From: Escherichia coli
GTDB lineage: Bacteria > Pseudomonadota > Gammaproteobacteria > Enterobacterales > Enterobacteriaceae
NCBI RefSeq assembly: GCF_003991155.1
Contig: NZ_CP031293.1
DNA length: 64,000 nt
Direction: 5' to 3' (one strand)
Made by a program: the position numbers and the translations under genes. This document shows, one piece after another, positions 6,790 through 60,483 of the stretch; the first letter of the stretch is position 1; the number at the start of each line of letters is the position of its first letter. The notes beneath the pieces were generated by a model that saw only the letters and a program-made list of their open reading frames with translations, searched no databases and had not been told where the DNA came from.

Positions 6790-6833
6790 TTATGCTCCTA
6801 AAATAATGTGATATTAAAAATTCTGTTAATAAG

Positions 6834-8737: not shown

Positions 8738-8850
8738 AGGTCGTGCTCAAATGTCAGCGGGGCATGGTCCGCTATTCGCCATGACGTAAGATGCCCCATC
8801 AGGTCGCGGGTGAAGCGTTCTGTGATACCCTCAGCCTGTAATTTTACAGG

Positions 8851-9285
8851 TTAAATGGGGAATTTTTCTTCAATGAGCTTCAAGCCAAGTAATGCCATAT
8901 CATGAATATCTTCATCATGCGATTGAGCCGAAATTTTCAACCCGTTTACCATTCTTTTATCTGGGAAAGACATTGTTAATATAGTACACCAAAGCCTAAC
9001 GCTTTTTATTGTGTTAGGATTTTCGAGTATGTTAACGATATTTATAACAACATCATTAAAATCACACTTATAGAGAAAATCCTCAACAATTTGATATACT
9101 CCAAGACCATCACCCTCACCAAAAGATCGCAAAAATAAAGGTATTGCATCTTTATCGGGATGGGAAAGAAAGTAAATTCGTACCTCATCGTATTTATCTA
9201 TAAGATCCTGAGTAATATCACAATCCGCGGGCATTGGTTGATGTAGTGACAGGAACTCTAATGCTTCTTTTTTATTCATATTCAT
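8851..9285 (-). CDS. Putative immunity protein for Rhs C-terminal toxin 1
   Basis: The ORF starts at MNMNKKEAL, and its ATG overlaps the toxin TGA (ATGA, 9282-9285). It is AT-rich, ~144 aa, and lies immediately downstream of the toxin. Confidence 0.6.
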   Translation of the reverse strand: MNMNKKEALEFLSLHQPMPADCDITQDLIDKYDEVRIYFLSHPDKDAIPLFLRSFGEGDGLGVYQIVEDFLYKCDFNDVVINIVNILENPNTIKSVRLWCTILTMSFPDKRMVNGLKISAQSHDEDIHDMALLGLKLIEEKFPI

Positions 9286-21308: not shown

Positions 21309-22052
21309 TTATAGCAGTGCCAGCAGGAAGACCAGTTCACCAAGCTCTATGGCTGCTCCCAGCGTATCGCCGGTTTGCCCGCCCAGCGTACGTTTGAGAA
21401 GCTGACCGAGGATGAAAATCGCCACCATCGTCACCACCATAGCAGCCACACCATGCATACCCGGCAATAATACGGCAGCAAAAATAGCGGCTAAGCCGAG
21501 TGTGACGCAGGTTTGTCGCCCATCAATTTTGCCAATGAACACATTGCCAAGCCCTTCTTCCCGCGCATAACGATGACGATACATCAATAATGCGGCAGTC
21601 CCGCGGCTGACCGCACATGCTGCCGCCAGCGATGCAAGGATCGGTTCGCCACGCAGAGCCAACTCGCTTAACACCAGAATCTTTGCCAGTACCACAAAAA
21701 TCAATGCCAGACCGCCGTGGGTGCCTAAACGGCTATCACGCATGATTTCCAACATGCGATCGCGGCTACGTGCAGAAAATACGCCATCACAGGTATCAGC
21801 GAGGCCGTCCAGGTGGAATCCCCCGGTCATCAGCGCCAGCATAAGTACGCTAAACAGTGCCGCCAGTGGTACGTCACACCATGCCTGCAGCACCATGAAG
21901 ACCAGCCCGCTAATCGCGCCAAGCAATAATCCAATCAAAGGAAAAGTAATAATACCGCGAGAATAATGCTCGAAATCCAGTCCCTGGGACCAGCGACGCG
22001 GTACAGGCAGACGCGTAATAAATGAGAGCATCGCCCAAAATAATTTACTCAT
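21309..22052 (-). CDS. cobS: Cobalamin (5'-phosphate) synthase CobS
   Basis: A membrane protein starting at [18 protein letters not shown]. Its ATG overlaps the cobU stop (ATGA, 22049-22052). Confidence 0.9.
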
Positions 22053-22594
22053 TTGATTTTTACTCCAATACACGAAACCACCAGCCATACTTCATTTGCC
22101 GCAGCGGCCAACTGCTGGTTTACCCGCCCGGCAATATCACGAAAATGTCGTGCCAGACGACTCTCCGGCACAATCCCCATTCCCACTTCGTTAGTCACTA
22201 ATACAACCTTTGCGGGGCAACGTTGGCAGGCAGCAATCAACGACTGAATCTCAGCATTAATCGCCTGTTCCATCGCCTGATAATCCCATTCATCAGGGTC
22301 TTTATCGCCGCCATAATCAAACAACAGATTAGTCACCATTGTGGTAACGCATTCCAGCAACACAGCCTCATTCGGGTTAATGTCTGCATGAATTAATTCA
22401 TCAAGATGTTGCCAGCGCTCCACTGTGCGCCAGTGCGCCGGGCGGCCTTTCCGATGATGTTCTATCCGTGCAGCCATCTCATCATCAAGGATTTGCGAGG
22501 TGGCGATATACAGAACCTGTGAAGAGTCCCCAATAAGCGCTTCTGCGTGGCGACTCTTCCCGCTCCGTGCTCCACCTGTCACCAAAATCATCAT
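22049..22594 (-). CDS. cobU: Adenosylcobinamide kinase/phosphate guanylyltransferase CobU
   Basis: The ORF is 181 aa with the P-loop [14 protein letters not shown]. Confidence 0.9.
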
Positions 22595-22727
22595 ACCGAC
22601 TCCTGATTCAATTGTATGATGGTATTCATTGAACAGAACAATGGATCCCCCACCGTTGCTGACCGCAAAACATTTACGCGATTAATACTGCGCGTAATAT
22701 AATTAAAAATCCAGCATTCTCAATCCA

Positions 22728-23165
22728 TTACGAAAGAAGATGGCATTGCGGAATAGCCAGACTTCCTCGTGTTAACGTCCGACAAAATGCGTCATTGACA
22801 GCGGTTTCTCTGGCATGACAGATTTCATTCAGATAATGGATTAATGCTACAGCCCCACCAGCCGGACCAGTCAGCAAACGGGCATTGTGTTCTGTAATCA
22901 AAATTACCGTCGTTCCCTCAGAATGAGCGAGCCATTCTGGTACGGATATCTCGCTTTCAGCTGCTATCAATAGCAGCACTGAATAATCGCTATACGCATC
23001 TGATAACGATTGCACAGGCCCACCGTCAAAAGGCTGGAAATCTTGCTGCCAGTCCTCACCAACCAAACAGGTTATTGGCAATATTTCCGCCAGATGTTTC
23101 GCCAGATCCACATCTCCAGATAAGAGGCAAAAAAGAGCTATCGATTCGGGTTTTATCGTTTTCAT
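22728..23165 (-). pseudogene. cbiG-like N-terminal remnant, all that remains of the cbi operon
   Basis: MKTIKPESIALFCLLSGDVDLAKHLAEILPITC...LLTGPAGGAVALIHYLNEI resembles the Salmonella CbiG N-terminus as I recall it (..VKPESIALFCLTPGG..LLSGHAGGAN..). It sits between the B12 riboswitch and cobU, where cbiA-P would be. Confidence 0.45.
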
Positions 23166-23384
23166 GCCCCTCGCCCTCCACTTAATTTCCTGTAATGGCG
23201 GTCTGGTTGATAAGCCATGAAACAAGATTGCCACACCTTAAGTGCAGCCCTGGTGCCTGTCGGCACTGCGATGAAAGAACTAAATGATGCCGCCATACCC
23301 TGATCCTTTCAGGGTGGTAGGGGTATAAAGACGCGCCTGTACTCTACCGGACGCTTCCGGGCAACCCACTTCCCACCGAAGTTG

Positions 23385-23545
23385 TTGGTATTGACTGACT
23401 GGCTGGTCTTCTGGCTTAGCGTCATCCTCTCCCGACCTTCCCAATCTCGCGATCAGTGGCATTTTCGGGTTTGTCAGCATTACAGCAGCGGGGGCTGCGA
23501 GGGATTTTCACCCTCTTCCCAGGCACAAATGTGCCACACCTGTCA
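23385..23545 (-). promoter_or_regulatory. Cobalamin (B12) riboswitch aptamer of the cbi/cob leader
   Basis: The minus strand reads GCCTGGGAAGAGGGTGAAAATCCCTCGCAGCCCCCGCTGCTGTAA...GCCACTG...AAGCCAGAAGACCAGCCAG. The last element is the B12 box at 23399-23417. These match the conserved cobalamin riboswitch core. Confidence 0.85.
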
Positions 23546-23649
23546 GCGTATGTTATGAGCTGATTTCACTTTTCCCATAACAGGGAAATAACGTTAATTA
23601 TTCATTCCAGAGTTTATTTAAACCGTCCTCTTTTTTTGGGGCATTTACT

Positions 23650-24564
23650 CTATACCGTTTCCATCGCCGCATTATCACTCACTTGCTGTCGATACACCTG
23701 CGGCGTAACCTGATAAGTCTGACGGAAAACTTTGCAAAAATAACTTGTTTGCGAAAAACCTAAATTACGCGCAATGCTGGCGATGCTCCAGTCACTATGG
23801 CACAGTAACTCACGAGCGCTGGCCATCCGTTGTTGGTTTACCCACGCATTAAACCCGATTCCATGGTATTTCTTAAATAACTTACTGAAATAATAAGGGC
23901 TTAGATAAACGTGCGAGGCGACATCTTCCAGACGCAAATCGTCTGATAAATGCGCATCAATATAACGTAAAGCTTTTTTCATTTTATTGTCGTGGGGACC
24001 AGGCGCACGAGTCTGGCGCAACGAATCTGACTGAGATTTGTTCTCTTTAATAACCACAAAATTGAGTTGTTTTTTTAGGCAATTTTCTACAATCAACTTC
24101 AACAAATCCGCAGAGGCCATAACTCTTGAGTAATCCATCTCAGGGACTTTGCGAAATTCATTAAGTAATTCGGGATCTGCCTGCCAGCAATCATCGACAT
24201 TCAGAATATCGACCAAATCGACATCATCATTACGCAGACGAACTTGCCCGCACAATACAAAACCAACTAAATGTCCGGCGATTACCAGTGGAATAGAGAA
24301 ATCGGTTAATCCGGCATGACAGCGATAAATACAAGGCTGATCGGATTTAGAGGCTTCCAGCCCCCCACAACGATCGCTCATGCGACATCGAGTGCTCATC
24401 TGAGGGTGTTGCCGCATCATCTGACAAAATGGAGTGAAGTTAAACAGCTCGGAAATTTCATCGCCGTGAATATTGACCACGACAACCGCAAGGCTGGTCG
24501 CCTGCGCAAAATCCTGCGCGATTTTATTAATGAGTTCTGAATTAAGTGTCGCCGCAGAAATCAT
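23650..24564 (-). CDS. pocR: AraC-family regulator PocR of the pdu/cob regulon
   Basis: The ORF is 304 aa with a C-terminal AraC HTH (ARNLGFSQTSYFCKVFRQ). Its position between the cob leader and pduF matches Salmonella. Confidence 0.9.
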   Translation of the reverse strand: MISAATLNSELINKIAQDFAQATSLAVVVVNIHGDEISELFNFTPFCQMMRQHPQMSTRCRMSDRCGGLEASKSDQPCIYRCHAGLTDFSIPLVIAGHLVGFVLCGQVRLRNDDVDLVDILNVDDCWQADPELLNEFRKVPEMDYSRVMASADLLKLIVENCLKKQLNFVVIKENKSQSDSLRQTRAPGPHDNKMKKALRYIDAHLSDDLRLEDVASHVYLSPYYFSKLFKKYHGIGFNAWVNQQRMASARELLCHSDWSIASIARNLGFSQTSYFCKVFRQTYQVTPQVYRQQVSDNAAMETV

Positions 24565-24766
24565 GATAAAACCTCCCAGTTAATTTATTGTTATAGCAAA
24601 ACAATTGTTTTACATTTAATCTTCACATCATCCTTGATGATTTACTGACGAGAAGCACAAAGGACAATAACAAAAGCCTCCGTGAAGCGGGAGACTTTTT
24701 AATAAGTTCGGAAAGCAGATCACAAACAGTAAAAAAATAAACGTTTATAACTGCCAGATTATTTCA

Positions 24767-25576
24767 TTATTCGCTGATTTCTTTAGGCGTTACACTATTG
24801 ACAGGTAAATTCTTTGCAATGAGATAGCGATAAATCGCCGCACCAACACATGCCCCAATGATCGGTGCAATAATGGGTACAATGAAATAAGGAATATTGC
24901 GTCCACCAGTCATCGCAATTTCCCCCCAACCCGCAAACCAGGTGAAAATTTTAGGTCCAAAATCACGCGCTGGATTCATGGCAAAACCGGTTAATGGTCC
25001 GGTAGAAGCACCAATAACAGCAACCAGAATACCAATAAGTAAAGGCGCAAGCGGTCCTTTGGGTACGCCATTACCGTCATCGGTCAACGCCATAATCAAC
25101 CCCATTAACATGGACGTTATGACCACTTCGACCAACGCAGCTTGCCATACATTAATCGCCGCTGCTGGATAAGTACTGAAGATACTGGCGAGTTGTAAAC
25201 TTTCTGCGCTACCACGCACTATATTGTGAGCAGATTCAAAATCGATAAACAAACTGCTGTAGAGAGAATATGCCAGAACCGCACCACCAAAGGCACCCGC
25301 TAATTGCGCCACACAAAATGGCAGCACTTTACGGGCTGGGAAAGAGGCAAACAGCCACAGAGCAATGGTAACTGCCGGGTTGAGATGAGCGCCGGAAATA
25401 CCTGCCGTAAGGTAAACAGCAAGCGAAATCCCTAACCCCCATATGATACAAATTTCCCACAGTCCCAGACTTGCCCCGGCAACTTTCAGGGCGCACAAAC
25501 AACCAATGCCAAAAAAGAGGAACAGTCCGGTGCCCAAAAACTCGGCAACGCATTGCGCCTTGAGTGAATCATTCAT
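24767..25576 (-). CDS. pduF: Propanediol diffusion facilitator PduF (MIP family)
   Basis: The start is MNDSLKAQCVAEFLGTG. Two NPA boxes are present (GAHLNPAVT and MNPARDFGP). Confidence 0.9.
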   Translation of the reverse strand: MNDSLKAQCVAEFLGTGLFLFFGIGCLCALKVAGASLGLWEICIIWGLGISLAVYLTAGISGAHLNPAVTIALWLFASFPARKVLPFCVAQLAGAFGGAVLAYSLYSSLFIDFESAHNIVRGSAESLQLASIFSTYPAAAINVWQAALVEVVITSMLMGLIMALTDDGNGVPKGPLAPLLIGILVAVIGASTGPLTGFAMNPARDFGPKIFTWFAGWGEIAMTGGRNIPYFIVPIIAPIIGACVGAAIYRYLIAKNLPVNSVTPKEISE

Positions 25577-25985
25577 AGTGACACCTTCTTTACGGAGTTT
25601 TTCTTTATCAGCCAACTATGCGCTGATTGTTGTGTATACCGAGCGCAACTATAAAAAATTGCTCTGCAGAAAATATTGCCAACATGCATGACAGACTCGT
25701 GTAAAAATCGTGCTAACATAACAAATTATTGTCATTGCCGAATCATGCAACACAGCTTTAATCAGTGTTGAAGTAATAATTTCCACCAAACTTTTACAAT
25801 AAAAAATTGCCATCATGACATAATAAAATTGAAACAAATATCACAGTTCCTTCCTCGAACCAAACTCAACGAAATATTATTCGCGATTAAACTCACTAGC
25901 CAACGCAATTAATTCACATTGAAACATCCACAAAACAACCAATAAATTAACAACATATAGTTCATAAAAGCAATTTTATTATATT

Positions 25986-25994
25986 TGTTCTCTA
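25986..25994. repeat. IS1 target-site duplication, left copy (TGTTCTCTA)
   Basis: It is identical to 26763-26771 and directly abuts the IS1 end. Confidence 0.9.
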
Positions 25995-26009
25995 GGTAAT
26001 GACTCCAAC

Positions 26010-26513
26010 TTATTGATAGTGTTTTATGTTCAGATAATGCCCGATGACTTTGTCATGCAGCTCCACCGATTTTGAAAACGACAGCGACTTCCGTCCCAGC
26101 CGTGCCAGGTGCTGCCTCAGATTCAGGTTATGCCGCTCAATTCGCTGCGTATATCGCTTGCTGATTACGTGCAGCTTTCCCTTCAGGCGGGATTCATACA
26201 GCGGCCAGCCATCCGTCATCCATATCACCACGTCAAAGGGTGACAGCAGGCTCATAAGACGCCCCAGCGTCGCCATAGTGCGTTCACCGAATACGTGCGC
26301 AACAACCGTCTTCCGGAGCCTGTCATACGCGTAAAACAGCCAGCGCTGGCGCGATTTAGCCCCGACGTATCCCCACTGTTCGTCCATTTCCGCGCAGACG
26401 ATGACGTCACTGCCCGGCTGTATGCGCGAGGTTACCGACTGCGGCCTGAGTTTTTTAAATGGCGGAAAATCGTGTTGAGGCCAACGCCCATAATGCGGGC
26501 GGTTGCCCGGCAT
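26010..26513 (-). CDS. insB: IS1 InsB (expressed as the InsAB' fusion by frameshift)
   Basis: The ORF is 167 aa (..[30 protein letters not shown]..). Confidence 0.95.
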
Positions 26514-26707
26514 CCAACGCCATTCATGGCCATATCAATGATTTTCTGGTGCGTACCGGGTTGAGAAGCGGTGTAAGTGAACTGCAGTTGCCATGTTTTA
26601 CGGCAATGAGAGCAGAGATAGCGCTGATGTCCGGCGGTGCTTTTGCCGTTACGCACCACTCCGTCAGTAGCTGAACAGGAGGGACAGCTGATAGAAACAG
26701 AAGCCAC
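26432..26707 (-). CDS. insA: IS1 InsA
   Basis: [51 protein letters not shown]... Confidence 0.95.
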
Positions 26708-26762
26708 TGGAGCACCTCAAAAACACCATCATACACTAAATCAGTAAGTTGGCAGCATCACC

Positions 26763-26771
26763 TGTTCTCTA
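26763..26771. repeat. IS1 target-site duplication, right copy (TGTTCTCTA)
   Basis: It is identical to 25986-25994. Confidence 0.9.
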
Positions 26772-26863
26772 TTAATTTTTCTCATTAGCCGAGTAAGTCA
26801 GCCATTCTTTTTCCTCGCTTTTTTTTATAGTCATATCGTCAAAAAAATCCAGGCGAGGTCTTT

Positions 26864-27148
26864 ATGCAACAAGAAGCGTTAGGAATGGTAGAAACCAAAG
26901 GCTTAACTGCCGCCATAGAGGCCGCAGATGCCATGGTGAAGTCGGCAAATGTTTTGCTGGTCGGCTACGAAAAAATAGGTTCCGGGCTGGTGACCGTCAT
27001 CGTTCGTGGTGATGTCGGGGCGGTAAAAGCGGCAACAGACGCGGGTGCCGCAGCTGCGCGTAACGTCGGCGAAGTAAAAGCCGTACACGTTATTCCCCGC
27101 CCACATACCGATGTCGAAAAAATCTTACCAAAGGGAATTAACCCATGA
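26864..27148 (+). CDS. pduA: BMC-H shell protein PduA
   Basis: [30 protein letters not shown]... is a BMC domain, and it is the first gene of the operon. Confidence 0.95.
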
Positions 27149-27957
27149 GCAGCAATGAACTGGTCGAACAGATCATGGCGCAGGTCATCGCTCGCGTAGC
27201 GACGCCAGAGCATGAGGTTCTCCCGAAAACCACTCATCAAATACGAGAGACGGCTATGGCAGAAAAAAGCTGCACGTTAACAGAATTTGTTGGCACCGCT
27301 ATTGGCGACACTGTAGGTCTGGTCATTGCGAACGTTGATAGCGCCCTGTTGGACGCGATGAAACTTGAAAAACGCTATCGTTCCATTGGCATTCTGGGGG
27401 CGCGTATTGGCGCAGGGCCACACATTATGGCCGCTGATGAAGCGGTAAAAGCCACCAACACTGAAGTTATTAGCATTGAACTTCCTCGCGATACTAAAGG
27501 CGGTGCCGGACACGGCTCATTGATCCTCTTAGGTGGCAACGATGTTTCCGACGTGAAACGCGGTATTGAAGTTGCCCTGAAAGAACTCGATCGGACCTTT
27601 GGTGATGTCTATGCCAACGAAGCCGGGCATCTTGAACTGCAATACACCGCCCGCGCCAGCTATGCACTGGAAAAAGCGTTTGGCGCTCCACTGGGACGGG
27701 CTTGCGGCGTTATTGTCGGCGCTCCGGCTGCGGTGGGTGTTCTGATGGCCGACACCGCGCTGAAGTCCGCCAATGTGGATGTCGTGGCATACAGCTCCCC
27801 CGCTCAAGGCACCAGCTACAGCAACGAAGTCATTCTGATTATCTCGGGTGACTCCGGCGCAGTCCGCCAGGCGGTCATCTCCGCACGCGCAATCGGTAAA
27901 ACCGTGCTTTCGACTCTCGGCGATACACCGAAAAACGATCGCCCTTCCTACATCTGA
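27145..27957 (+). CDS. pduB: BMC-T shell protein PduB (internal start for PduB' at 27256)
   Basis: The ORF is 270 aa. A second in-frame start gives [14 protein letters not shown] at codon 38, as in the known PduB/PduB' pair. Confidence 0.9.
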
Positions 27958-27975
27958 ATTCTCTGAGGCAGATTT

Positions 27976-29640
27976 ATGAGATCGAAAAGATTTGAAGCAC
28001 TGGCAAAACGCCCGGTCAACCAGGACGGTTTCGTTAAAGAGTGGATTGAAGAAGGCTTCATTGCGATGGAAAGCCCGAACGATCCTAAACCGTCAATCAA
28101 AATTGTTAACGGCGTCGTTACCGAACTGGATGGAAAACCCGCCAGTCAGTTTGACCTGATCGACCACTTTATCGCCCGCTACGGCATCAATCTCGCGCGC
28201 GCAGAAGAAGTCATCGCGATGGATTCGGTAAAACTTGCCAATATGTTGTGCGATCCAAATGTCAAACGTAGCGATATCGTTCCCCTTACCACAGCAATGA
28301 CGCCTGCAAAAATCGTCGAAGTGGTTTCGCAGATGAACGTGGTAGAGATGATGATGGCGATGCAGAAAATGCGCGCCCGTCGAACACCATCACAACAGGC
28401 TCACGTCACCAACATCAAAGATAACCCGGTACAAATTGCCGCCGACGCAGCTGAAGGCGCATGGCGCGGGTTTGATGAACAGGAAACCACTGTTGCCGTT
28501 GCTCGCTATGCACCGTTCAACGCCATCGCCCTGCTGGTCGGCTCACAGGTGGGACGTCCGGGCGTCTTGACCCAGTGTTCACTGGAAGAAGCCACCGAAC
28601 TGAAACTCGGTATGTTAGGCCACACCTGTTACGCCGAAACAATTTCTGTCTATGGTACAGAACCTGTTTTCACCGATGGCGATGATACCCCGTGGTCAAA
28701 AGGATTTCTCGCGTCATCCTATGCTTCTCGCGGCTTAAAAATGCGCTTTACTTCCGGCTCCGGCTCTGAAGTACAGATGGGTTACGCGGAAGGCAAATCA
28801 ATGCTTTATCTCGAGGCTCGATGCATTTACATCACCAAAGCCGCAGGCGTTCAGGGTCTGCAGAATGGTTCGGTAAGCTGCATCGGTGTTCCATCAGCTG
28901 TGCCATCAGGCATCCGCGCAGTATTAGCGGAAAACTTAATTTGCTCATCGCTGGATCTGGAATGCGCCTCCAGTAATGACCAGACCTTTACCCACTCGGA
29001 TATGCGCCGTACCGCACGTTTCCTGATGCAATTTCTGCCGGGTACCGACTTTATCTCGTCCGGTTTTTCCGCTGTGCCGAACTACGACAACATGTTTGCT
29101 GGTTCAAACGAAGATGCTGAAGACTTCGATGATTACAACGTCATTCAGCGTGACCTGAAGGTTGATGGCGGGCTGCGACCAGTACGCGAAGAAGATGTTA
29201 TCGCAATCCGCAATAAAGCCGCTCGCGCTTTACAGGCTGTCTTTGCCGGTATGGGACTACCGCCAATTACCGATGAAGAAGTCGAAGCGGCAACCTATGC
29301 CCACGGTTCGAAAGATATGCCTGAGCGCAATATTGTGGAAGACATCAAGTTCGCCCAGGAGATTATCAATAAAAACCGTAACAGCCTGGAAGTGGTGAAA
29401 GCCCTGGCGCAAGGCGGTTTTACCGATGTCGCCCAGGACATGCTCAACATGCAAAAAGCAAAACTGACCGGCGATTATCTCCATACCTCAGCCATCATCG
29501 TCGATGACGGACAAGTGCTCTCAGCGGTCAATGACATCAATGATTACGCCGGACCAGCTACAGGTTACCGCCTGCAAGGGGAACGCTGGGAAGAGATCAA
29601 AAATATTCCCGGTGCACTTGATCCCAACGAAATTGACTAA
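27976..29640 (+). CDS. pduC: B12-dependent diol dehydratase large subunit
   Basis: The ORF is 554 aa (MRSKRFEALAKRPVNQDGFVKEWIEEGFIAMESPNDPKPSIKI...). Confidence 0.95.
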   Translation: MRSKRFEALAKRPVNQDGFVKEWIEEGFIAMESPNDPKPSIKIVNGVVTELDGKPASQFDLIDHFIARYGINLARAEEVIAMDSVKLANMLCDPNVKRSDIVPLTTAMTPAKIVEVVSQMNVVEMMMAMQKMRARRTPSQQAHVTNIKDNPVQIAADAAEGAWRGFDEQETTVAVARYAPFNAIALLVGSQVGRPGVLTQCSLEEATELKLGMLGHTCYAETISVYGTEPVFTDGDDTPWSKGFLASSYASRGLKMRFTSGSGSEVQMGYAEGKSMLYLEARCIYITKAAGVQGLQNGSVSCIGVPSAVPSGIRAVLAENLICSSLDLECASSNDQTFTHSDMRRTARFLMQFLPGTDFISSGFSAVPNYDNMFAGSNEDAEDFDDYNVIQRDLKVDGGLRPVREEDVIAIRNKAARALQAVFAGMGLPPITDEEVEAATYAHGSKDMPERNIVEDIKFAQEIINKNRNSLEVVKALAQGGFTDVAQDMLNMQKAKLTGDYLHTSAIIVDDGQVLSAVNDINDYAGPATGYRLQGERWEEIKNIPGALDPNEID

Positions 29641-29649
29641 GGGTGAGAA

Positions 29650-30318
29650 ATGGAAATTAACGAAAAATTACTGCGTCAGATTATCGAAGGCGTGCTGGCA
29701 GAAATGCAAACCAGCGACAAGTCCGTTTCATTTCGTGCACCTGTCTCTGCAACTGTCTCTTCAGTGCCAGATACCGGAAATTTTCTGACCGAAATTGGCG
29801 AAGCCCAACAAGGCACTCAGCAAGATGAAGTCATTATTGCTGTAGGCCCGGCGTTCGGCCTGGCGCAAACCGTCAATATCATCGGTATTCCGCATAAAAA
29901 CATTTTGCGCGAAGTGATTGCCGGTATCGAAGAAGAAGGCATTAAAGCCCGTGTGATTCGCTGCTTTAAATCGTCCGATGTCGCATTCGTAGCAGTCGAA
30001 GGCGATCGTCTTAGTGGTTCAGGTATTGCTATCGGTATTCAGTCGAAAGGCACAACGGTTATCCACCAGCAGGGACTTCCCCCCTTGTCTAACCTGGAAC
30101 TTTTCCCACAAGCGCCTTTGTTGACGCTGGATACTTATCGTCAGATTGGCAAAAACGCCGCGCGTTATGCGAAGCGCGAGTCTCCACAACCGGTGCCGAC
30201 CCTCAACGATCAAATGGCGCGACCGAAATACCAGGCCAAATCTGCCATTTTGCATATTAAAGAGACGAAGTACGTGGTCACTGGCAAAAAACCGCAAGAA
30301 CTGCGCGTGACGTTTTAA
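29650..30318 (+). CDS. pduD: Diol dehydratase medium subunit
   Basis: The ORF is 222 aa with the N-terminal [19 protein letters not shown] encapsulation-peptide-like helix. Confidence 0.9.
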
Positions 30319-30332
30319 CAAAGGAAACCTTC

Positions 30333-30851
30333 ATGAATACCGATGCAATTGAGTCGATGGTCAGGGACGTGTTGAACCGCATGAACAGTTTACAGGGTGC
30401 AGCTCCTGTTTCTGCGGTCCCCAGCGCGTCAATACAGAGCGCCAAAGTGACGGATTACCCGCTGGCAAATAAACATCCGGAATGGGTTAAAACAGCAACC
30501 AATAAAACGCTCGACGATTTCACTCTGGAAAATGTGCTCAGCGATAACGTCACCGCCCAGGATATGCGCATTACCCCTGAAACATTGCGTATTCAGGCCG
30601 CGATTGCCAGAGATGCTGGTCGCGATCGCCTGGCGATGAATTTCGAACGCGCCGCTGAGCTTACCTCAGTACCGGATGATCGCATCCTCGAAATCTACAA
30701 TGCGTTACGCCCTTATCGTTCGACTAAGCAAGAACTTATTGCCATTGCTGACGATCTTGAACGGCGTTATCAGGCCAAAATTTGTGCTGCATTTGTCCGT
30801 GAAGCTGCGGAACTTTATGTCGAGCGCAAAAAACTGAAAGGCGACGATTAA
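30333..30851 (+). CDS. pduE: Diol dehydratase small subunit
   Basis: The ORF is 172 aa and lies in the expected operon position. Confidence 0.9.
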   Translation: MNTDAIESMVRDVLNRMNSLQGAAPVSAVPSASIQSAKVTDYPLANKHPEWVKTATNKTLDDFTLENVLSDNVTAQDMRITPETLRIQAAIARDAGRDRLAMNFERAAELTSVPDDRILEIYNALRPYRSTKQELIAIADDLERRYQAKICAAFVREAAELYVERKKLKGDD

Positions 30852-30896
30852 GGACGAACTATGCGATATGACGATTAAGGACGAACTATGCGATAT
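30843..30896 (+). repeat. Perfect tandem duplication, 2 x 27 bp (GACGATTAAGGACGAACTATGCGATAT), across the pduE stop / pduG start
   Basis: Copy 1 is 30843-30869 and copy 2 is 30870-30896. I verified them base by base. Confidence 0.95.
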
Positions 30897-32720
30897 ATAG
30901 CAGGCATTGATATCGGCAACTCATCAACAGAGGTTGCGCTGGCAACGCTCAGTGCAACTGGAGAGTTGTCGTTCGTGAGTAGCGCCCTGGCGGAAACCAC
31001 CGGAATTAAAGGTACGTTGCGTAACGTCCATGGTATTCAGGAGGCGCTCGCACAGGCAACGAAAAAAGTCGGCATCAATGTTAGCGATATTTCGCTTATT
31101 CGTATCAACGAAGCAACTCCGGTCATTGGTGATGTGGCGATGGAAACCATCACTGAAACTATCATCACCGAATCAACCATGATCGGTCACAACCCGAAAA
31201 CGCCGGGCGGAGTGGGGCTGGGCGTAGGGCTCACCATCACTCCGCAAGAGTTATTAACATGCCCGGCGGACACACCCTACATTCTGGTGGTGTCATCGGC
31301 ATTTGATTTTGCCGATATCGCAACAATGATAAACGCCTCCGTACGCGCCGGATATCAGCTGACTGGCGTTATTCTGCAACGCGACGATGGCGTACTGGTC
31401 AATAACCGCCTGGAAATTCCTCTCCCTATTGTTGATGAAGTCCTCTACATCGATCGTATTCCGCTCGGCATGCTGGCTGCGATTGAAGTTGCCGTTCCCG
31501 GGAAAGTTATCGAAACCCTGTCTAACCCGTATGGGATTGCCACCGTTTTCGCCCTCAATGCTGAAGAGACTAAAAATATTGTTCCTGTCGCGCGGGCGCT
31601 AATCGGCAACCGTTCAGCAGTGGTAGTGAAAACGCCTTCTGGCGACGTTAAAGCCCGTTCGATACCCGCCGGAAATATCGAACTGCTTTCTGCCGGGCGC
31701 ACAACGCGGGTTGATGTAGCTGCTGGTGCCGATGCCATTATGAAAGCGGTCGGTGAGTGCCCAAAACTGGAAAACGTGACGGGAGAACCTGGCTCCAACA
31801 TCGGCGGAATGCTGGAACATGTTCGCCAGACCATGGCTGAACTGACCAACAAACCCAGCCACGAAATTTTTATTCAGGATTTGCTGGCGATAGATACCTC
31901 TGTCCCCGTCAACGTAACCGGTGGTCTGGCAGGTGAATTTTCACTGGAACAGGCTGTGGGTATTGCCTCTATGGTGAAATCCGACCGTCTGCAAATGGCG
32001 ATGATCGCCAGTGAAATTAAGCAAAAACTGCATGTTGATGTTCAGGTCGGAGGCGCAGAAGCAGAAGCCGCCATTCAAGGGGCCTTGACTACCCCTGGAA
32101 CCACACGTCCACTGGCAATTCTGGACTTAGGTGCAGGCTCTACCGATGCCTCCATCATCAATCAGAAAGGGGAAATTGTTGCCACTCACCTTGCGGGTGC
32201 GGGCGACATGGTAACGATGATTATCGTTCGTGAGCTGGGCTTAAATGATCGTTATCTGGCAGAAGAAATCAAAAAGTACCCGTTGGCAAAAGTAGAAAGC
32301 CTGTTCCACTTACGCCATGAAGATGGCAGCGTTCAGTTCTTCCCTACTCCCCTATCCCCCTATGTATTTGCCCGCGTCTGTGTAGTGAAACCCGACGAAC
32401 TGGTGCCTATTCCCGGTGATTTGACGCTGGAAAAAGTACGCGCTGTTCGTCGCAGTGCGAAAGAGCGTGTCTTCGTAACCAATGCCCTGCGCGCGCTACG
32501 TCAGGTAAGCCCTGCCGGAAATATTCGCGACATTCCGTTCGTCGTTCTGGTGGGCGGTTCTTCGCTGGATTTCGAAGTACCACAGTTAGTCACCGATGCA
32601 TTGGCGCATTATCGACTGGTCGCCGGACGGGGGAATATCCGTGGTAGCGAAGGTCCGCGCAACGCGGTAGCTACTGGGCTACTCATCGCCTGGCACAAGG
32701 AGTCGATTCATGGAAAGTAA
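30888..32720 (+). CDS. pduG: Diol dehydratase reactivase large subunit
   Basis: The ORF is 610 aa (MRYIAGIDIGNSSTEVALA...). Confidence 0.9.
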   Translation: MRYIAGIDIGNSSTEVALATLSATGELSFVSSALAETTGIKGTLRNVHGIQEALAQATKKVGINVSDISLIRINEATPVIGDVAMETITETIITESTMIGHNPKTPGGVGLGVGLTITPQELLTCPADTPYILVVSSAFDFADIATMINASVRAGYQLTGVILQRDDGVLVNNRLEIPLPIVDEVLYIDRIPLGMLAAIEVAVPGKVIETLSNPYGIATVFALNAEETKNIVPVARALIGNRSAVVVKTPSGDVKARSIPAGNIELLSAGRTTRVDVAAGADAIMKAVGECPKLENVTGEPGSNIGGMLEHVRQTMAELTNKPSHEIFIQDLLAIDTSVPVNVTGGLAGEFSLEQAVGIASMVKSDRLQMAMIASEIKQKLHVDVQVGGAEAEAAIQGALTTPGTTRPLAILDLGAGSTDASIINQKGEIVATHLAGAGDMVTMIIVRELGLNDRYLAEEIKKYPLAKVESLFHLRHEDGSVQFFPTPLSPYVFARVCVVKPDELVPIPGDLTLEKVRAVRRSAKERVFVTNALRALRQVSPAGNIRDIPFVVLVGGSSLDFEVPQLVTDALAHYRLVAGRGNIRGSEGPRNAVATGLLIAWHKESIHGK

Positions 32721-45295: not shown

Positions 45296-45814
45296 CGCAA
45301 CACCCCTGAGAACCGCCATAAACAAGGGTTTCATGATTTGTGATTTTAGTTTGGTACGCAATTTGGTACACAACACAATTTTCACTTCAGCGGGTAGTCA
45401 TCAAACTCACCATAACGCACTTCGTTGATGATGTACGTGATCACCAAAAATATCGCATCCGGACTAGTTCCATCTTCATGCGCAGGCATATGTTCATGCC
45501 TACCTGTCTGCAAACCAGTAATAAGCCATTACAGGGTGATAGTGATGCATCAACTACGTTAAGCGCAGAGAAATGATGCAGTGGTGGGCGGATTGGCTTG
45601 ATGAAAAGGTGGAGTGATCCACCTTAACCACTATCGAAGAGCACAAAGCCTTGCAATCCAGTGCAAAGCTTTGTGTGTCTCAGTTTTGTTTCATAGGTAA
45701 TCATGCGTTCACTACGATGCAAGAATCCATACCAAATTTTATTTAAAACTCACAAATACACTAGATAAAAACAATCCCGCAGTTTTCATGCGGGATATAC
45801 TGCATTTATTGCAA

Positions 45815-48292
45815 CTACATTGCCATTAATATAAACATAGCCAATTCGTCATAACGAATTCCGTAGCGTCCACCTGCTTTTTTTACAAGAATCATATTTC
45901 CTGTTTTATATTGAGAATAAATTTTCTCACCTGTATCAGGATCTGTGCTCTCTTCAGTTATCACCTCTTCATCCCATACGTCTGGCCATTCATCGTAACA
46001 CCAAAAAGCATATTGCTCAGGATTTAAACCATGCTTTCTAAGAATATCTCCTACGGTTTGAGCGCCAACTCCAAAATGATACCTTGATAACTCCAATCCT
46101 TTAAAATTAATCGACTCATTAAACCTGAACTTGCATATAATTCCCTTTATTTCCAGCGCAGCATCACGCTCTGCCTGAGTAATGTCATATATTGTTTTAA
46201 GTGTTTCATCTGATGTGCTTATAGTCCCGGATGCAGAATAAATCTGAGCCCATCTAAATGATGGTGCACCAAGAGATTTGCTGTTATCAATAATTGGTGA
46301 AAAATTACCTTTAATGGCAATATTTCCAGAGTCGCCGAATATATTAATAACTGTAGAGTCATCACCATGGTTTTTTACGCTTAAGTTTCTTGATAAAATA
46401 TTTATATCTTTGTTATACCCACTAACATTAATCCATCTTTTACCATCAATGTGATACCCGTAAATATTTCCGTTTGATTGTTCGTCAGGTGACTCTCTAA
46501 GAACAATAGCATCTACTCCAGACGACCATTGTATTTTTGTATCTGTAGGCCTCCAGTTCTTTATAATGAACGAACCATCAGTAAACTCCGTTTTTATTTG
46601 TCTATTGTCTACAAATGCGTCTCTTGGTTTAAACTCACTTGTGTTAACGCTGCTCTGAAGATCAGAAGCAAAAAATCTAAGATTTCCTGTATAACCCTGA
46701 GTCTCGGTCAGGTTATACGCAATCATAATTCCATTTTCAAACTCAGATGATGTTATTTTAACATCACGGCAATCACCAAAAATGCAATTTCCTTTATCAA
46801 ATGTTGTTTGAGCTTTGAATTTATCAAACCTTAAATTACGAACAGGGAAACCATCAACCTCTAATGCAAAGGATGCATGAAGGCCAAAGTATTCTGATGG
46901 CTTACCTGATGTATGATCAAGAGTAGTGGCTACTGTATTCTCAAAAACAGTCCCGCTAAAATTATTACCAATTGACGGAAACCTGATTACACTTATTGTA
47001 CCTTGTATTTCAGGAGAAATACCAGATAGTGTGATGTTAGTTCCATCAAATGATGCATCTGAATACGTATATACTGATTCACTGCCAGCAATTTTAAACT
47101 GTTTAACTGAAGTTATTCTCATCGACTTTTTATGTTTAAATGTCACTGAGCTTTCAGTATTACTTACAAGATCAATCTGAGGGCTATTCCTTATCGCGAT
47201 TCCTGACTGGACATAAACGTTATTAAAGTGCGTTTTTTCAGGATTTCCCTTCATTGAAAGGCTCCCGTCATTTTCTGTCAGTAGTAGTCCTTTTACCCTC
47301 CAATAGCCGACAATCTGTACGTTATCAATAACTGAATCACAGCTATCGTATACATGCAACCCTATATCCCAGTTATCACCCAATGAATAAGAATCAGGGT
47401 TATTGTATCCTTCAATACCATTTTTACTTACCATTATTCTCAGATTGCGTAACTGTGATGCCCTGTTGATACTAACAGCTACGCTCATGGCTTTTGGTGT
47501 AGCAGGAGTAACACCTACAGAATCTTCATTCGTAAACTCAGTGAACTTACAAGATATCCCTTCAACAATTTTAACCGGTCTTTCATTAGAGATGTTAAAA
47601 AAATATTTGTTTTTTTCTCCATCACCAGTAAATACAAGATGGGTTCCTTTACTCCAACTTTTTAATAATCTTTCAGGCGCTGGTCTATATGTATCCCAAT
47701 AATCAATGCCAGATCCAACCAGTGAACACCCCTCAGGAATGTTAATATTCTTCTTGATGATGCATATTCCTTCCGGAATTGTTATAACCGACCTTCCAGA
47801 GTTTAAAGCTTTAATAAAAGCATCTGAATCATCTGTTTCCCCATCTATTTTTGCTCCCCACCCTCTAACATCTCCACAATCTCTCCATCGTGCCATCTGC
47901 AACTCAGGATATTTTTTAGCGCCATCTGGATCTTCTAATTGCTGCCGTAGCTGATCGGGGTCATACTTCAGCACATTAGGAAAATAGAACTGCTGCGCAC
48001 CATATGCATCATAAACAGCCATAGAATGGCCTTGCACAGTTACAAACTTGGCTATTTGCCCGTTATATACCGGGTAACCAGCAGCGTTAATGATGATTGG
48101 TTGCGAAACAGGAACGTGAGAGCCATCTTCGTTCTCCACATAAACCTGAATCTGGTTTTCAGGATTTACAGGGTCAGTGTCAATTTTACCGATATAAATT
48201 TTGCCATTGGCAACCGCTTTAAAAGAACGTGCCATAGTGAAGAGTTGAGAAGGCATACTCACTACAACATTGGCATTTATCGAATCTGTCAT
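45815..48292 (-). CDS. Tailspike: P22 gp9-type head-binding N-domain, beta-helix depolymerase-like centre and C-terminal intramolecular-chaperone (peptidase S74-like) domain
   Basis: The N-terminus [64 protein letters not shown] matches P22 gp9. The centre has [30 protein letters not shown]. The C-terminus has [15 protein letters not shown]...[10 protein letters not shown]...[13 protein letters not shown]. Confidence 0.85.
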
Positions 48293-48350
48293 TTAATTTG
48301 CTCCAGATACAAGGAATCGCCGCAGCATGGCTACGGTGAATTTTGGGCAT

Positions 48351-48373
48351 AAAAAACCCAGCCGAAGCTGGGT
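48351..48373 (-). terminator. Rho-independent terminator between ant and the tailspike gene
   Basis: The minus strand has ACCCAGC-TTCG-GCTGGGT followed by TTTTTT. Confidence 0.75.
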
Positions 48374-48391
48374 CGTTGCGTTGGTTATCTG

Positions 48392-49321
48392 TCAGTAGTT
48401 ATGTACTGAAGGAGGTAATTCTTTATTCTTAAGTCTCATCCATGCGGAAAGATTCGTTGGTCCGTCTGGCTCATTGATATCAACATCTCGTGTGTGATTG
48501 ATTAAAACGTCTCTCGCCATTCCGATAACATACGAGAACTCATGACCATAGTCGTAGCATCTGCCGGAATAGTTCGATTGAATTTGTTTTAATGCCGGAT
48601 ACAGTTCGCGGAATAACGCCTGTGAGCGGTTGGCATAATCCCATAACCATACAAGGCTGTTTGCTTCTTTTGCAGAAAGCTCGTTGGTTTTCTTCTCTTG
48701 TTTGCCAATGAACTCACCTTCAAGCGGAACGCGAGCAGCAAGTGACAGTGCTTCGGTAAACTGCTCATCACTGATTTCTTTGTACGAACATCCAAAATGG
48801 GATTTCAGTGACGACCACATGGTGATCATCGCCTTCGCCTGTTTTTCTTTTGGCAGAGACTGACCGCGACTCATGACGAGTTGTTTAATGGCTTCCTGCT
48901 GTTCAGTGGTGATTTTACCCGGCAACGCCTTTTTAGCTTTGCGTGGGTTAACTACATGGCCTTTAGTCCAGTACTCGTAGAGCACATCGTCACACTCTTC
49001 CTGATACTGGATTACCTTGTCGCGGATTTCAGGGCGGACTTTGTTTGGACTGATGGTTTGCAGCCAGCCAGCAAGTTTGCGAAGTGCCAAACAAATAATC
49101 TCACGGCACTGTTCATCACCAGGAAGCTGCATTGTGATTTTCACAATGGAGGTTTTAAACCGTTGCTTTATTTTCGTAAACTGTGAAGCCCAATCCATAC
49201 CCATACCTTCAACGATAGGTTTCATTGGGGTGTACGGCTCACCGTTGTGATTGACGACATAAAGCTCTGCGCCGTGGAATGGCACGTTGATAGTAGATAC
49301 TGCTGTTGCTATACTTTTCAT
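48392..49321 (-). CDS. ant: Antirepressor (Ant-like; P22_AR N-terminal type)
   Basis: The ORF is 309 aa, lies downstream of arc in the immI region, and contains [33 protein letters not shown]. Confidence 0.75.
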
Positions 49322-49387
49322 GTCAGTTTTTCCTCAAAATTTACTGGCGATTTAAGCCCGAGCTACTCGCAATAGCTTGGGCTTTAC

Positions 49388-49534
49388 TCATTCTGGACAA
49401 ACAATTCCATCCTTAGCTACTGACTCCTTTAGTCTCCTCAATACCTCATTACTGAACGACCGATCATCCTTTTTCGCGGACTGCTCCAAAGCCTTTTCCA
49501 GCCATTCTGGCATCCTTAATGTCTTAACTTTCAT
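49388..49534 (-). CDS. arc: Arc-like ribbon-helix-helix repressor
   Basis: MKVKTLRMPEWLEKALEQSAKKDDRSFSNEVLRRLKESV is an RHH pattern. An AAGGAG RBS is present. The listed ORF start at 49600 is upstream of the likely start. Confidence 0.75.
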   Translation of the reverse strand: MKVKTLRMPEWLEKALEQSAKKDDRSFSNEVLRRLKESVAKDGIVCPE

Positions 49535-49580
49535 TTTTGCTCCTTTGCTCCTTTGTATGTGGTACGCATACATAGTATTT

Positions 49581-49609
49581 AGGTACGCATTGATAGTCAA
49601 TAGATACCT
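49581..49609. promoter_or_regulatory. Candidate immI operator: near-palindrome AGGTAcgcATTGA-TAG-TCAATagaTACCT in the arc/mnt divergent region
   Basis: It lies in the 112-bp divergent intergenic region (49535-49646). GGTACGCAT is also repeated at 49561 and 49582. Confidence 0.5.
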
Positions 49610-49646
49610 ACATATCCTGTGGTAAATAATTATTCAGGATGCGCCG

Positions 49647-49898
49647 ATGTCTGATCGTAAGTACAAAAACCCTCAAGTGAATCTGAGGCTTCCTGTAGAG
49701 ATAAAGGAACGTCTTATTGAGCTGGCTGAGGCTAATTCTCGTTCATTAAATGCTGAGATGGTAGCAGCACTTGAGGCATGGACTGAAAAAAATAAACATA
49801 TTCAAGCACTAGATATTGCAACTATAGCATCGCGGTTGATAGAGCTTGAGCATGAGGTTGAGAAGTTAAAATGTATGCATGGCAACGGTGAAAAATGA
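49647..49898 (+). CDS. mnt: Mnt-like ribbon-helix-helix repressor
   Basis: NPQVNLRLPVEIKERLIELAEANSRSLNAEMVAALEAW has the same RHH pattern as P22 Mnt, followed by a C-terminal coiled tail. Confidence 0.75.
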   Translation: MSDRKYKNPQVNLRLPVEIKERLIELAEANSRSLNAEMVAALEAWTEKNKHIQALDIATIASRLIELEHEVEKLKCMHGNGEK

Positions 49899-50209
49899 AA
49901 CGCATCGCTATTTTGTTAATATTGTTCTTCTCTACAATAGTTTGCGCCAAACAAAAATCAGATAATGGCGATCTTAAAGGCCTGCAAGAACTCATGATAA
50001 CTTCGAAATTTGCTGGCATGTGCGGCACAATCAAACAAATGGCAACATTTCAAGAATCAACAAAAATGCCTGGCGGAGATGAGTTCTTACAGCGTTTTCT
50101 GACCACAGAGCAAGCAAGACTTGGAATGAATCCACAGGAGTTTCTTGAAGCATGCCAGAAGTCAATTTCAGCTTATACCAATTATTACAATCTAACTTCT
50201 GATAAATAA
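49895..50209 (+). CDS. Small secreted protein (moron, sieA-position)
   Basis: Its ATG overlaps the mnt stop (ATGA). It has the signal peptide MKRIAILLILFFSTIVCA. I see no recognisable homology. Confidence 0.6.
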   Translation: MKRIAILLILFFSTIVCAKQKSDNGDLKGLQELMITSKFAGMCGTIKQMATFQESTKMPGGDEFLQRFLTTEQARLGMNPQEFLEACQKSISAYTNYYNLTSDK

Positions 50210-50234
50210 TAGAAAGGATTTTATAAATAACTTT

Positions 50235-50720
50235 ATGAAAAAATCACTATTAATTATCCCGCTTCTGCTGGCTGGATGCGCAAAAGTAAGTGACTACCAA
50301 GCAAGTTGCGAACAACGCTATCCAAAGCTTAGTGATATGGCTAATTGCCTTGATGCCAGCGTGAAGAACGACTCACGCATGGCATCAGCACCAACACCTA
50401 AGCTGTATGTCCTTGCTGCGAAGATGCTCGGGCAAGGTGTCGATGAAGGCAAGATAAGTGACGCACAGGCAAGACTTGAGCTTCAGAATCTTTATGTTCA
50501 ATTACAAAGCCAAGAACAAGCCCAACAAATAGCGCAAAGCCAAGCATTCCAGCAGGCTTTATTGAATTATCAGGCTGTAAACACAATGCAAGCGATCGAG
50601 CAAAAAGCGCGCCAGCCTGTTATAACTCAACCTTACCCAACACGCGTTGACACATATACAAACTGCAATTCAGGATTTGGAAACACCGTCACATGCAACA
50701 GTAGCAGCAACATTAGATAA
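50235..50720 (+). CDS. Lipoprotein, Gln-rich (moron, sieA-position)
   Basis: It has the lipobox LLAGC (Cys15) with Ala at +2. The centre is Q-rich (QSQEQAQQIAQSQAFQQALLNYQ). Confidence 0.65.
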   Translation: MKKSLLIIPLLLAGCAKVSDYQASCEQRYPKLSDMANCLDASVKNDSRMASAPTPKLYVLAAKMLGQGVDEGKISDAQARLELQNLYVQLQSQEQAQQIAQSQAFQQALLNYQAVNTMQAIEQKARQPVITQPYPTRVDTYTNCNSGFGNTVTCNSSSNIR

Positions 50721-50722
50721 AG

Positions 50723-52885
50723 CTATTCATATTCATTCATACCGCTTAACGAGGCGACAATACCAGCTCTCGACAAGCGATTGAATTCATCGCTACCAAT
50801 AGCATCGCGTATTGCTTTTACGGCGGCTTTATTTGCCATAAATCTGCGTTCCGCCGCCGCTAATGCTTCTTTACTTCCGCCAGCTCTTACTGCTTTCGTG
50901 GCTTCCTGAACTGCTTTCTCTATCGCATATCGGCCGCTACGCGTGGTGGCAATTTTAGATACAGCACCTTTTAACCCGGCGCCAACTAAAGCACCTGCGG
51001 CAGCGCCTGCAATGCCCCCTCCTGCTCCACCAACAATGGCACCTGATGTTGAGTTGGCAATTGCATTTAACACTGTTGATGTGACGTTGGATAAACCGGC
51101 ATCCAGATCGCGTAGTACATTGGCAGTTCTCCCTGTTCTTTCAATATACTGCTGAGGCTTCACTGCTGCTCTTGCAAGAGTGCCATATGCATCAGCAATT
51201 CTTCCGAGTTCTGAGGAATATCTGCTAATGGCTTTTACATTTTGTGGGGTAAGTATCCCTGCGATATGGTTAATTCCTGCTGCATCAGCTTTGCCACCAC
51301 GTACACCATGCGAGATAGCATCTTGCAACATTGATGATATAGCAGGAACACGCTCTGATTCTGGCAGCGCGCGGATCATAGAATGGAACCCAGCAGGACC
51401 ATTAAGACCTTTAGCTGACGATGATTGAAGGGATTTTACTCCATTCGTAATCAGTGCATCTGTTGCCAAATCACGCCCGAAAACAGACTCTGCACTCTCT
51501 TGTGCTGATAACCTCGCTTTAGACAGATCATTAGCTTTCTGCCAGTCATCAAGAAATCCGCCGTTTTCCGCCATTGTGCGCATATCATCAGTAATTGCCC
51601 GGCGTATTTCCCCTGCTCTCCTTGCCGCATTTGCCTCTCCGCTACGCTTATATTTTTGCTCCGCATCAGCAAATTTCGCTCTCCATGCTTTCATGCCATC
51701 AAATGTTACCCCACCTTGATTGTTTGCCTGAACAAACTGTTTCATTTCAGGAGTAAGCGGTATGCCAGCAGATCGCTCTGCCTGAATAACGGCATTACCA
51801 TTTAGCATTCTTGCTTTTTGATTTGGCATTGTTGACCGCACGTCATCCCATGCCGCGCGCTCGGCATCCTTCATCTGATCAAGATTTTGAAGAATCCTTT
51901 GTTTTATAGCCGCACTTTTTTCTGATGCCGTTCCAGATGCGGCCCCAAATTCATCAAGGTTTCGACTTAACTTTGATGATATTTCGTTAAATGCTGCCTG
52001 ATGGGCGTCCTGAACAATTCCTGGTGTTGATGCCAATGCGCCTTCGGCTTGTGCAATTCCACGACTTCCAGATCGCATTCCTGGTGTTAATGCGTTTATA
52101 TCAATTCCAGCAGACTCAGCCGCTTTTGCTACATCTTCGGACACATTAGCGGCCTGACTGGCAATTGACTGACGCCCAGCACCTGACTTTGCCATCCTGG
52201 AAACATCATTAGCAGAATTCAGTGCTGCACCACCAAGAGCCTGTGAAACCCTTGGCGCAATAACGCGCCCGACACCTGAAAGAACGCCTTGAGCACCAAT
52301 ATTGATACCACCGTTAATGGCAGCATTTTGTGCAAAGTCGCCCTCCTGATTTGCAGCATCAGCAAGAGAACCTGCAATCATGTTTCCTGCGGAACCGATA
52401 TCTCCAGCGAGCTTTGCTGGCGCTCCAGCAGCTTTTGCCGCTGTGCCAATTGGCAGGAGATACCCACCAATTGTTTCACCGGCTTGCGCATAAGGGTCTG
52501 TCGGTCGATCGACTGGACGATAGACATCATCCAAAACCTTTGGGCCACCAAGCCCCTGGCTGATTGCATTAATCAGACTTGCGCCACCCTGCAATACGTC
52601 AAATGGTATGTTTACCAGACCACGACCAGCCTGTTCTGCAATTTGCCCTGCACTTTGACCACCTGTGAGCCAATCACCAGCTTGTTGCATCAATGATGGT
52701 TCTTCTTTCTGCTGCTGTGGCGGAGGGTATGCTGCATAAAACTGATCTCTTGCTTCAGCCCATTTGTCACCAGCCTTAGGGGCAACAACCTCATCAAAAT
52801 ATTGCGCTTGAGCCTGTGCTTTCTGTTCTTCAGTTAACGCCTGATACTGTGGAGAAGCGATAACATCTTTCCATGCTTTAGCCAT
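50723..52885 (-). CDS. Ejection (internal virion) protein, gp16 position
   Basis: The ORF is 720 aa, Ala/Gly-rich, and the last of the three ejection genes. Confidence 0.75.
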
Positions 52886-54225: not shown

Positions 54226-54234
54226 GATTACCCC

Positions 54235-54927: not shown

Positions 54928-54929
54928 GG

Positions 54930-58219: not shown

Positions 58220-58263
58220 GCTTGTCTCCAGATAAAAACGGGAGCCGAAGCTCCCTCTGGTTA

Positions 58264-60470: not shown

Positions 60471-60483
60471 GATTAACTCTCTC

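Follow-up and report, generated by a model that had tools for sequence, protein, structure and literature searches.

The junction between pduE and pduG in this Escherichia coli strain carries a perfect 27-bp tandem duplication. We consider it probable (about 0.7) that this is a genuine, heritable and protein-silent change of single origin, across which PduG synthesis would be relayed and which behaves as a near-neutral marker of its lineage. The feature is a short tandem duplication polymorphism: its copies are identical and lie head to tail, and the single-copy allele is present in close relatives.

The duplication occupies positions 30843-30896 of the window, as the whole 64-kb stretch of DNA analyzed is termed here. 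Direct reading of the sequence gives two copies of GACGATTAAGGACGAACTATGCGATAT that are 100% identical. Tandem Repeats Finder reports an array at the same positions with a period of 27, 2.0 copies, 100% matches and a score of 108, which makes it the top-scoring tandem array of the window. A pattern search allowing up to three mismatches matches GACGATTAAGGACGAACTATGCGATAT twice in the window, against an expectation of zero from 100 dinucleotide-preserving shuffles, and a repeat search of the window returns the same 27-bp pair as the other three approaches. From the reading of 30600-31140, the junction runs ...AAAGGC, GACGATTAAGGACGAACTATGCGATAT, GACGATTAAGGACGAACTATGCGATAT, ATAGCAGGC..., and GAACTATGCGATATGACGATTAAGGACG is a k-mer of this junction. 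An initial sequence-only reading had described a perfect 27-bp tandem duplication here, and every coordinate it gave is right. No microhomology is present at the edges of the 27-bp unit, which cannot be extended by a single base (c/t before, a/g after). Slipped-strand origin through flanking short direct repeats was rejected, given exactly 2.0 copies without edge microhomology. A nearby CGAT...CGAT repeat has a period of 18 nt, compared with 27 for the duplication. The features of the junction are:

30333-30851, plus strand: pduE, diol dehydratase small subunit, 172 aa (open reading frame list; Pfam PF02287, E=1.9e-62)
30843-30869, plus strand: repeat copy 1, GACGATTAAGGACGAACTATGCGATAT (sequence, Tandem Repeats Finder, pattern and repeat searches)
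30850-30854, plus strand: SD1, AAGGA (TAAGGA with the T before it), overlapping the pduE stop and 6 nt upstream of ATG1
30861-30878, plus strand: mini-ORF, ATG CGA TAT GAC GAT TAA, translated as MRYDD-stop and in frame with pduG
30870-30896, plus strand: repeat copy 2, same as copy 1, holding the SD and start codon used by pduG
30877-30881, plus strand: SD2, AAGGA, overlapping the mini-ORF stop (TAA, 30876-30878) and 6 nt upstream of the pduG ATG
30888-32720, plus strand: pduG, diol dehydratase reactivase large subunit, 610 aa (open reading frame list; Pfam PF08841, E=3.8e-163, and PF18427)

The duplicated unit is the entire intercistronic module: the last two pduE codons, the TAA stop overlapping TAAGGA, a 6-nt spacer, and an ATG followed by two codons. 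TAAGGA and AAGGA are complementary to the 3' end of 16S rRNA. Copy 1 holds the final two pduE codons and the pduE stop (TAA, 30849-30851). The initial reading had also placed in this copy an AAGGA motif and an ATG at 30861 reading MRYDD-stop, as the sequence and its translation confirm. Its further claim that copy 2 supplies the pduG start at 30888, with both coding sequences intact, is borne out by the open reading frame list, Pfam and RefSeq. PduG begins MRYIAGIDIGNSSTEVALA in the open reading frame list and translation, and RefSeq places its start at the second ATG in genomes identical to the window. Read in a single frame, the junction translates as KLKGDD-stop-GRT-MRYDD-stop-GRT-MRYIAGIDIG... 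Because the whole stop/SD/start module is duplicated, neither the PduE nor the PduG protein is altered. Consistently, duplication carriers and a single-copy genome share the PduE accession WP_061092878.1, and carriers and single-copy genomes alike have a PduG of 610 aa. The gene pair has the character of a pdu operon, with a small-subunit domain followed by reactivase ATPase-like and swiveling domains in a pduABCDE-GH order; RefSeq gives pduA-B-C-D-E-G-H-J... in 100%-identical genomes.

The window is chromosomal, and the distribution of the two-copy junction was established with queries of several lengths. A 901-nt junction query matches 640 of 5,426 complete E. coli genomes, 29 of them at 901/901; the best match after those 29 is 97.0% identical over an 874-nt span, i.e. 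27 nt shorter. A 41-nt query (30850-30890), which is unable to seed megablast on a single-copy junction, returns exactly the same 29 genomes among the 5,426, all at 100%. Carriers hence represent 29 of the 640 pdu-positive complete E. coli genomes, and every one has exactly two copies. The two-copy junction is also found on a metagenome contig (OHAB01001143.1; L084). Carriers are wild isolates from 2012 onwards, sequenced by many groups, from humans, cattle, dogs, a cat, pigs, sheep, chicken, mink, surface water and several wastewater plants.

These data bear on whether the duplication is an assembly or sequencing artefact, a mobile-element footprint or an engineering scar, which we regard as scarcely conceivable. 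Short tandem repeats can in general be mis-assembled, and nothing further speaks for an artefact. Against it stand 29 complete genomes, produced in many laboratories and on many platforms and drawn from many hosts and countries, together with the metagenome contig, always with two copies. The caution in the initial reading that the repeat could be an assembly artefact is therefore set aside by the shared junction in 29 independently assembled complete genomes and in the metagenome contig. An element footprint or scar is opposed by the copies themselves, which directly abut with no remnant between them. A length of 27 bp is far above that usual for insertion sequence (IS) target-site duplications. 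An IS target-site duplication or excision footprint was accordingly rejected as the origin of the repeat: nothing lies between the copies, and the IS1 of the same window has a classic 9-bp duplication.

Nor is the duplicated form the normal junction of pdu operons, as the initial reading had allowed it might be. A 153-nt query, equal to the window minus one repeat copy, was run against a spread sample of 38 of the approximately 610 other pdu-positive E. coli genomes. It matches without interruption in the sampled genomes, often at 153/153, including in ECOR29 and an O121 strain, and no other junction length variants occur among these 38 single-copy genomes. The duplicated junction is likewise absent from all 80 species representatives with a PduG relative, a set that includes E. 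coli, Citrobacter, Klebsiella, Phytobacter, Yersinia, Veillonella and lactobacilli, with Salmonella not among them. The E. coli species representative (L004) has the identical unit in single copy. Since the window minus one copy matches many unrelated E. coli at 153/153 and 80 species lack the duplication, the single copy is ancestral and the duplication derived and rare. The spacer between the small-subunit stop and the reactivase start is 9-18 nt in most of the 80 representatives. In four loci (L009, L019, L034 and L037; locus positions about 1350-1500), from a Citrobacter amalonaticus strain, Klebsiella michiganensis, Hafnia paralvei and Yersinia frederiksenii, the gap between the reactivase gene and the nearest long ORF ahead of it is 134-148 nt; these may have a dha-type operon or a rearranged one with an insert.

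Carriers share a recognizable haplotype. With a 25-kb query, 27 of the 29 match the window at 100.0% identity over 24.2 kb of cob/pdu and the remaining two (980-2 and UID2309220003) at 99.2%, and the nearest single-copy genomes reach at most 98.8%. There is no single-copy revertant of the window's pdu haplotype among the complete genomes, as 27/27 retain two copies. Nor is copy-number variation of the kind expected from a VNTR or contingency locus seen among the 29 carriers, which always have two copies. Published sequence types are available for four of the 29 carriers (Korea, Japan, China), and all four are ST457: CREC-544 (PMC5884925), MRY15-117 and MRY15-131, isolated in 2012 and 2013 (PMC5430464), and AR13438 (PMC10100771). 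The last of these papers characterizes ST457 as an emerging ExPEC/ESBL lineage that has reservoirs in wildlife and livestock. No literature linking ST457 with pdu was found, the one paper with both terms treating each separately, and no published account of the 27-bp duplication was found in the literature searched.

The carriers outside the main haplotype are informative about origin. Strain 980-2 is identical to the window over 23612-32101 (approximately 7.7 kb without the window-private IS1), with the duplication inside, and is SNP-dense relative to the window in 21813-23611 (cobS/cobU) and from 32102 onward. The metagenome contig is identical to the window from 28552, across the duplication, and diverges at 32102. 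It and strain 980-2 have this breakpoint in common and differ in sequence further downstream. Overall, the two non-haplotype carriers and the contig are identical to the window over the stretches available, and all diverge from 32102. The single-copy strain AR_0077 also starts to differ from the window at 32102, inside pduG. Judged from these alignments, the window's pdu haplotype downstream of mid-pduG is of separate ancestry, with a putative recombination breakpoint at 32102. The duplication lies on one shared core haplotype, which is joined to at least three downstream haplotypes. This fits one origin with later recombination in the flanks, or a spread of the core segment by recombination, and does not fit recurrent mutation. 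Most likely, to judge by the shared core sequence, the duplication goes back to one event in the pdu operon of an E. coli strain, and the ST457 lineage and close relatives carry it today.

The consequence for translation follows from spacing. The distance from the pduE stop to the pduG start is 9 nt in the single-copy allele and 36 nt in the duplicated one. The distance from the mini-ORF stop to the pduG ATG is again 9 nt, as from the pduE stop to the pduG ATG in the single-copy allele, and that from the pduE stop to ATG1 is also 9 nt. TAAGGA overlaps both stops, and each step has the short distance characteristic of termination-reinitiation coupling. ATG1 and ATG2 lie 27 nt apart, in sequence contexts that are identical from -18 to +9.

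On this geometry, ribosomes that end pduE, or that load de novo at SD1, would start at ATG1. After five codons they would stop at the TAA overlapping SD2, 9 nt ahead of the pduG ATG. The proposed route would run from the pduE stop over 9 nt to ATG1, through five codons to the TAA, and over another 9 nt to ATG2. Because the mini-ORF stop repeats the ancestral pduE-pduG geometry, PduG synthesis would be relayed instead of blocked. If each junction has a reinitiation efficiency c, the coupled flux would change from c to about c² in the duplicated allele. De novo loading at SD1 would contribute a new term of approximately c times the de novo rate, and de novo loading at SD2 would be kept, less mutual exclusion with ribosomes at ATG1. 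With starts 27 nt apart, some mutual exclusion between initiating ribosomes is possible. The net change in PduG is probably small, within a few-fold, and could be a mild decrease or a mild increase. If pduG relies mainly on termination-reinitiation, two inefficient steps would be multiplied and PduG could be several-fold lower. A five-codon, SD-led ORF with a rare CGA codon also makes peptidyl-tRNA drop-off possible; an inducible chromosomal operon should express the MRYDD mini-ORF at too low a level for this to matter.

The initial reading had raised a decoy start that could lower or re-tune pduG translation. In a fuller form of this view, unlikely in our judgment though still to be reckoned with, ATG1 and SD1 would act as decoys which take the ribosomes of pduG, ribosomes on the mini-ORF would cover SD2, and the 36-nt gap would end coupling. 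PduG would then fall well below PduCDE, possibly adaptively. The 27-nt start-to-start distance is indeed below the ribosome footprint, and in E. coli a stop-start gap of 38 nt lowers reinitiation by 80-100% (PMC10666635). However, in another model reinitiation is roughly flat from 0 to 25 nt (PMC4538824). Under either published model, direct pduE-to-pduG reinitiation over 36 nt is probably weak, but the mini-ORF stop rebuilds the native 9-nt stop-SD-start geometry exactly, and the mini-ORF could act as a coupling relay as easily as a decoy. Experiments on close upstream ribosome-binding sites (RBSs) and mini-ORFs have revealed both coupling and occlusion, with a conflict range of 3-25 nt (PMC13285730). 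Provoked spatial conflict between upstream and main RBSs decreases main-ORF translation in that system, whereas the published short uORF that comes closest, that of glnK with 4 aa, acts positively (PMC13285730). The 27-nt spacing here is just outside this range, leaving occlusion uncertain either way. Adaptive re-tuning through a decoy is further opposed by the absence of any sign of selection.

RNA folding likewise argues against the decoy, since opening the pduG RBS is predicted to cost about as much energy in either allele. Over -15..+5 and four flank sizes, the opening energy is 5.5-6.4 kcal/mol for ATG2 of the duplicated allele and 5.4-8.1 kcal/mol for the single-copy allele, with 4.7-6.3 kcal/mol for ATG1. 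Modeling thus indicates that pduG RBS accessibility is about equal in both alleles, with no meaningful structural change predicted. A new RNA structure hiding the pduG RBS was rejected, as opening energies are about equal over the four window sizes. In the minimum-free-energy fold, the SD-proximal GGACGAAC (30852-30859 / 30879-30886) pairs with GTCGTTCG (30966-30975), approximately 80-110 nt downstream in pduG. Only one of the two GGACGAAC copies can pair with GTCGTTCG at once, and the effect on opening energy is negligible. No sigma-70-like promoter or intrinsic terminator is predicted from the novel joint on either strand of the junction. The repeat search detected only one inverted repeat nearby, a 10-nt AT-rich palindrome located at the start of pduG and flanking nothing. 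A leader-peptide transcription attenuator was rejected as well: no terminator-like site lies at or after the mini-ORF, which is absent from nearly all relatives.

The opposite effect, an increase in PduG, seems improbable. The mini-cistron would then serve as a bicistronic-type leader, the extra SD recruiting ribosomes and translation of the mini-ORF keeping the pduG RBS unfolded. In axe-txe, a natural 2-codon mini-ORF upstream of txe does increase downstream translation (PMC8708949), and uORFs that work by translational coupling are on record (PMC13285730). The identical context of both SD/ATG pairs would also suit such a leader. However, the pduG RBS is predicted not to be strongly structured in either allele, so the expected gain from unfolding is small, and ribosomes terminating on pduE already do the same job in the single-copy allele.

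Returning to the relay of near-neutral effect, the allele is kept in all genomes with the ST457 haplotype, which argues that it is not appreciably deleterious. This retention could instead reflect a benefit. In its strongest form, an adaptive relay mini-cistron would have been fixed in the globally spreading ST457, resetting the PduGH:PduCDE ratio and thereby 1,2-propanediol use in the gut; we give this little credence.

Comparison with known systems helps to place the junction. Both of its steps resemble termination-reinitiation coupled genes (Huber et al. 2019/2023; Tian & Salis 2015) in their 9-nt gap and in an SD that overlaps the upstream stop. Unlike ordinary coupled operon genes, two such junctions stand in series here with a five-codon ORF between them, and coupling is suggested by sequence geometry. 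Two-cistron or bicistronic design (BCD) leaders, the axe-txe mg2 minigene (PMC8708949) and the uRBS/uORFs of S. meliloti (PMC13285730) share with it a very short SD-led ORF that ends at or beside the main RBS. In BCDs, glnK and uORF1, stop and start overlap (ATGA or TAATG), whereas here they are 9 nt apart. As for the elements of a BCD, a leader ORF with its own SD is present, and SD2 overlaps only the stop codon. The MRYDD mini-ORF is also a by-product of duplication limited to one lineage, in contrast to conserved regulatory mini-ORFs. Toxic minigenes of the lambda bar type, which act through peptidyl-tRNA drop-off, are similarly SD-led, with 2-6 codons and a rare codon (CGA). They differ in that the mini-ORF described here sits in a modestly expressed, inducible chromosomal operon, gives no sign of toxicity and is retained in 27/27 genomes with the window haplotype. 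VNTR-like indels likewise show perfect head-to-tail copies, an ancestral single-copy allele in relatives and clonal inheritance. In contrast to them, the duplication lacks flanking microhomology, is fixed at two copies in 29 genomes and has a unit that exactly spans a gene junction. It is outside any conserved regulatory family, being without an attenuator, confined to one lineage, without stop/start overlap, fixed in copy number and unrelated to mobile elements. It is a previously undescribed, ordinary case of a protein-silent short tandem duplication polymorphism across a gene junction.

The window strain differs from other carriers upstream of the operon. A 768-bp IS1 on the minus strand (25995-26762), with InsA and InsB Pfam domains and its 9-bp target-site duplication, sits in the pduF-pduA intergenic region, its end 101 bp upstream of the pduA ATG (26864). 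It is missing from all 27 otherwise 100%-identical complete genomes and is private to the window strain. The insertion may split the pdu operon from its PocR-dependent control region, or bring a new promoter. Its effect on operon expression could outweigh that of the duplication on PduG in this isolate.

Several other features of the locus were observed. The cob/pdu control region (about 22000-26000; L001 11819-17177) comprises cobT-cobS-cobU, a remnant ORF, a cobalamin riboswitch, pocR and pduF. One genome labels the remnant, of 145 aa, as 'cobalamin biosynthesis protein'. Like other E. coli, the strain has lost the cbi genes, and the operon (pduA-V) ends at pduV, without pduW or pduX. As cbi genes are missing, propanediol use depends on external corrinoids. 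Homology to the ST457 reference genomes ends approximately 48 bp into sbcB; 45296-64000 is a P22-like prophage on the minus strand, whose genes (PHROGs) encode tailspike, DNA transfer/ejection proteins, head closure, major head, portal and large terminase. At this sbcB site, strain 980-2 carries another prophage, which is related but not the same. At the other end, about 1-17000 (L001 1-8942) is a variable island adjoining duplicated tRNA-Asn genes, containing an RHS-repeat protein, an IS3-family transposase, an integrase pseudogene and a HigA antitoxin. The island is common to strain 980-2 at 99.97%, arranged differently.

The duplication is real, and neither an artefact nor the normal junction, yet it is an ordinary protein-silent indel whose description has mainly clean-up value. 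The ST457 pdu haplotype could be recognized simply by this 27-bp difference in length, and the case warns annotators that the first ATG is not the pduG start. The natural allele pair, a 9-nt junction versus a 9+18+9-nt relay, would serve to test models of coupling against those of RBS occlusion. If PduG dosage is changed, the locus would illustrate, on a small scale, how duplicating an intercistronic module can tune operon stoichiometry. Should the relay be adaptive, the two alleles would form a natural isogenic pair with which to ask whether ribosomes reinitiate after termination only across very short distances.
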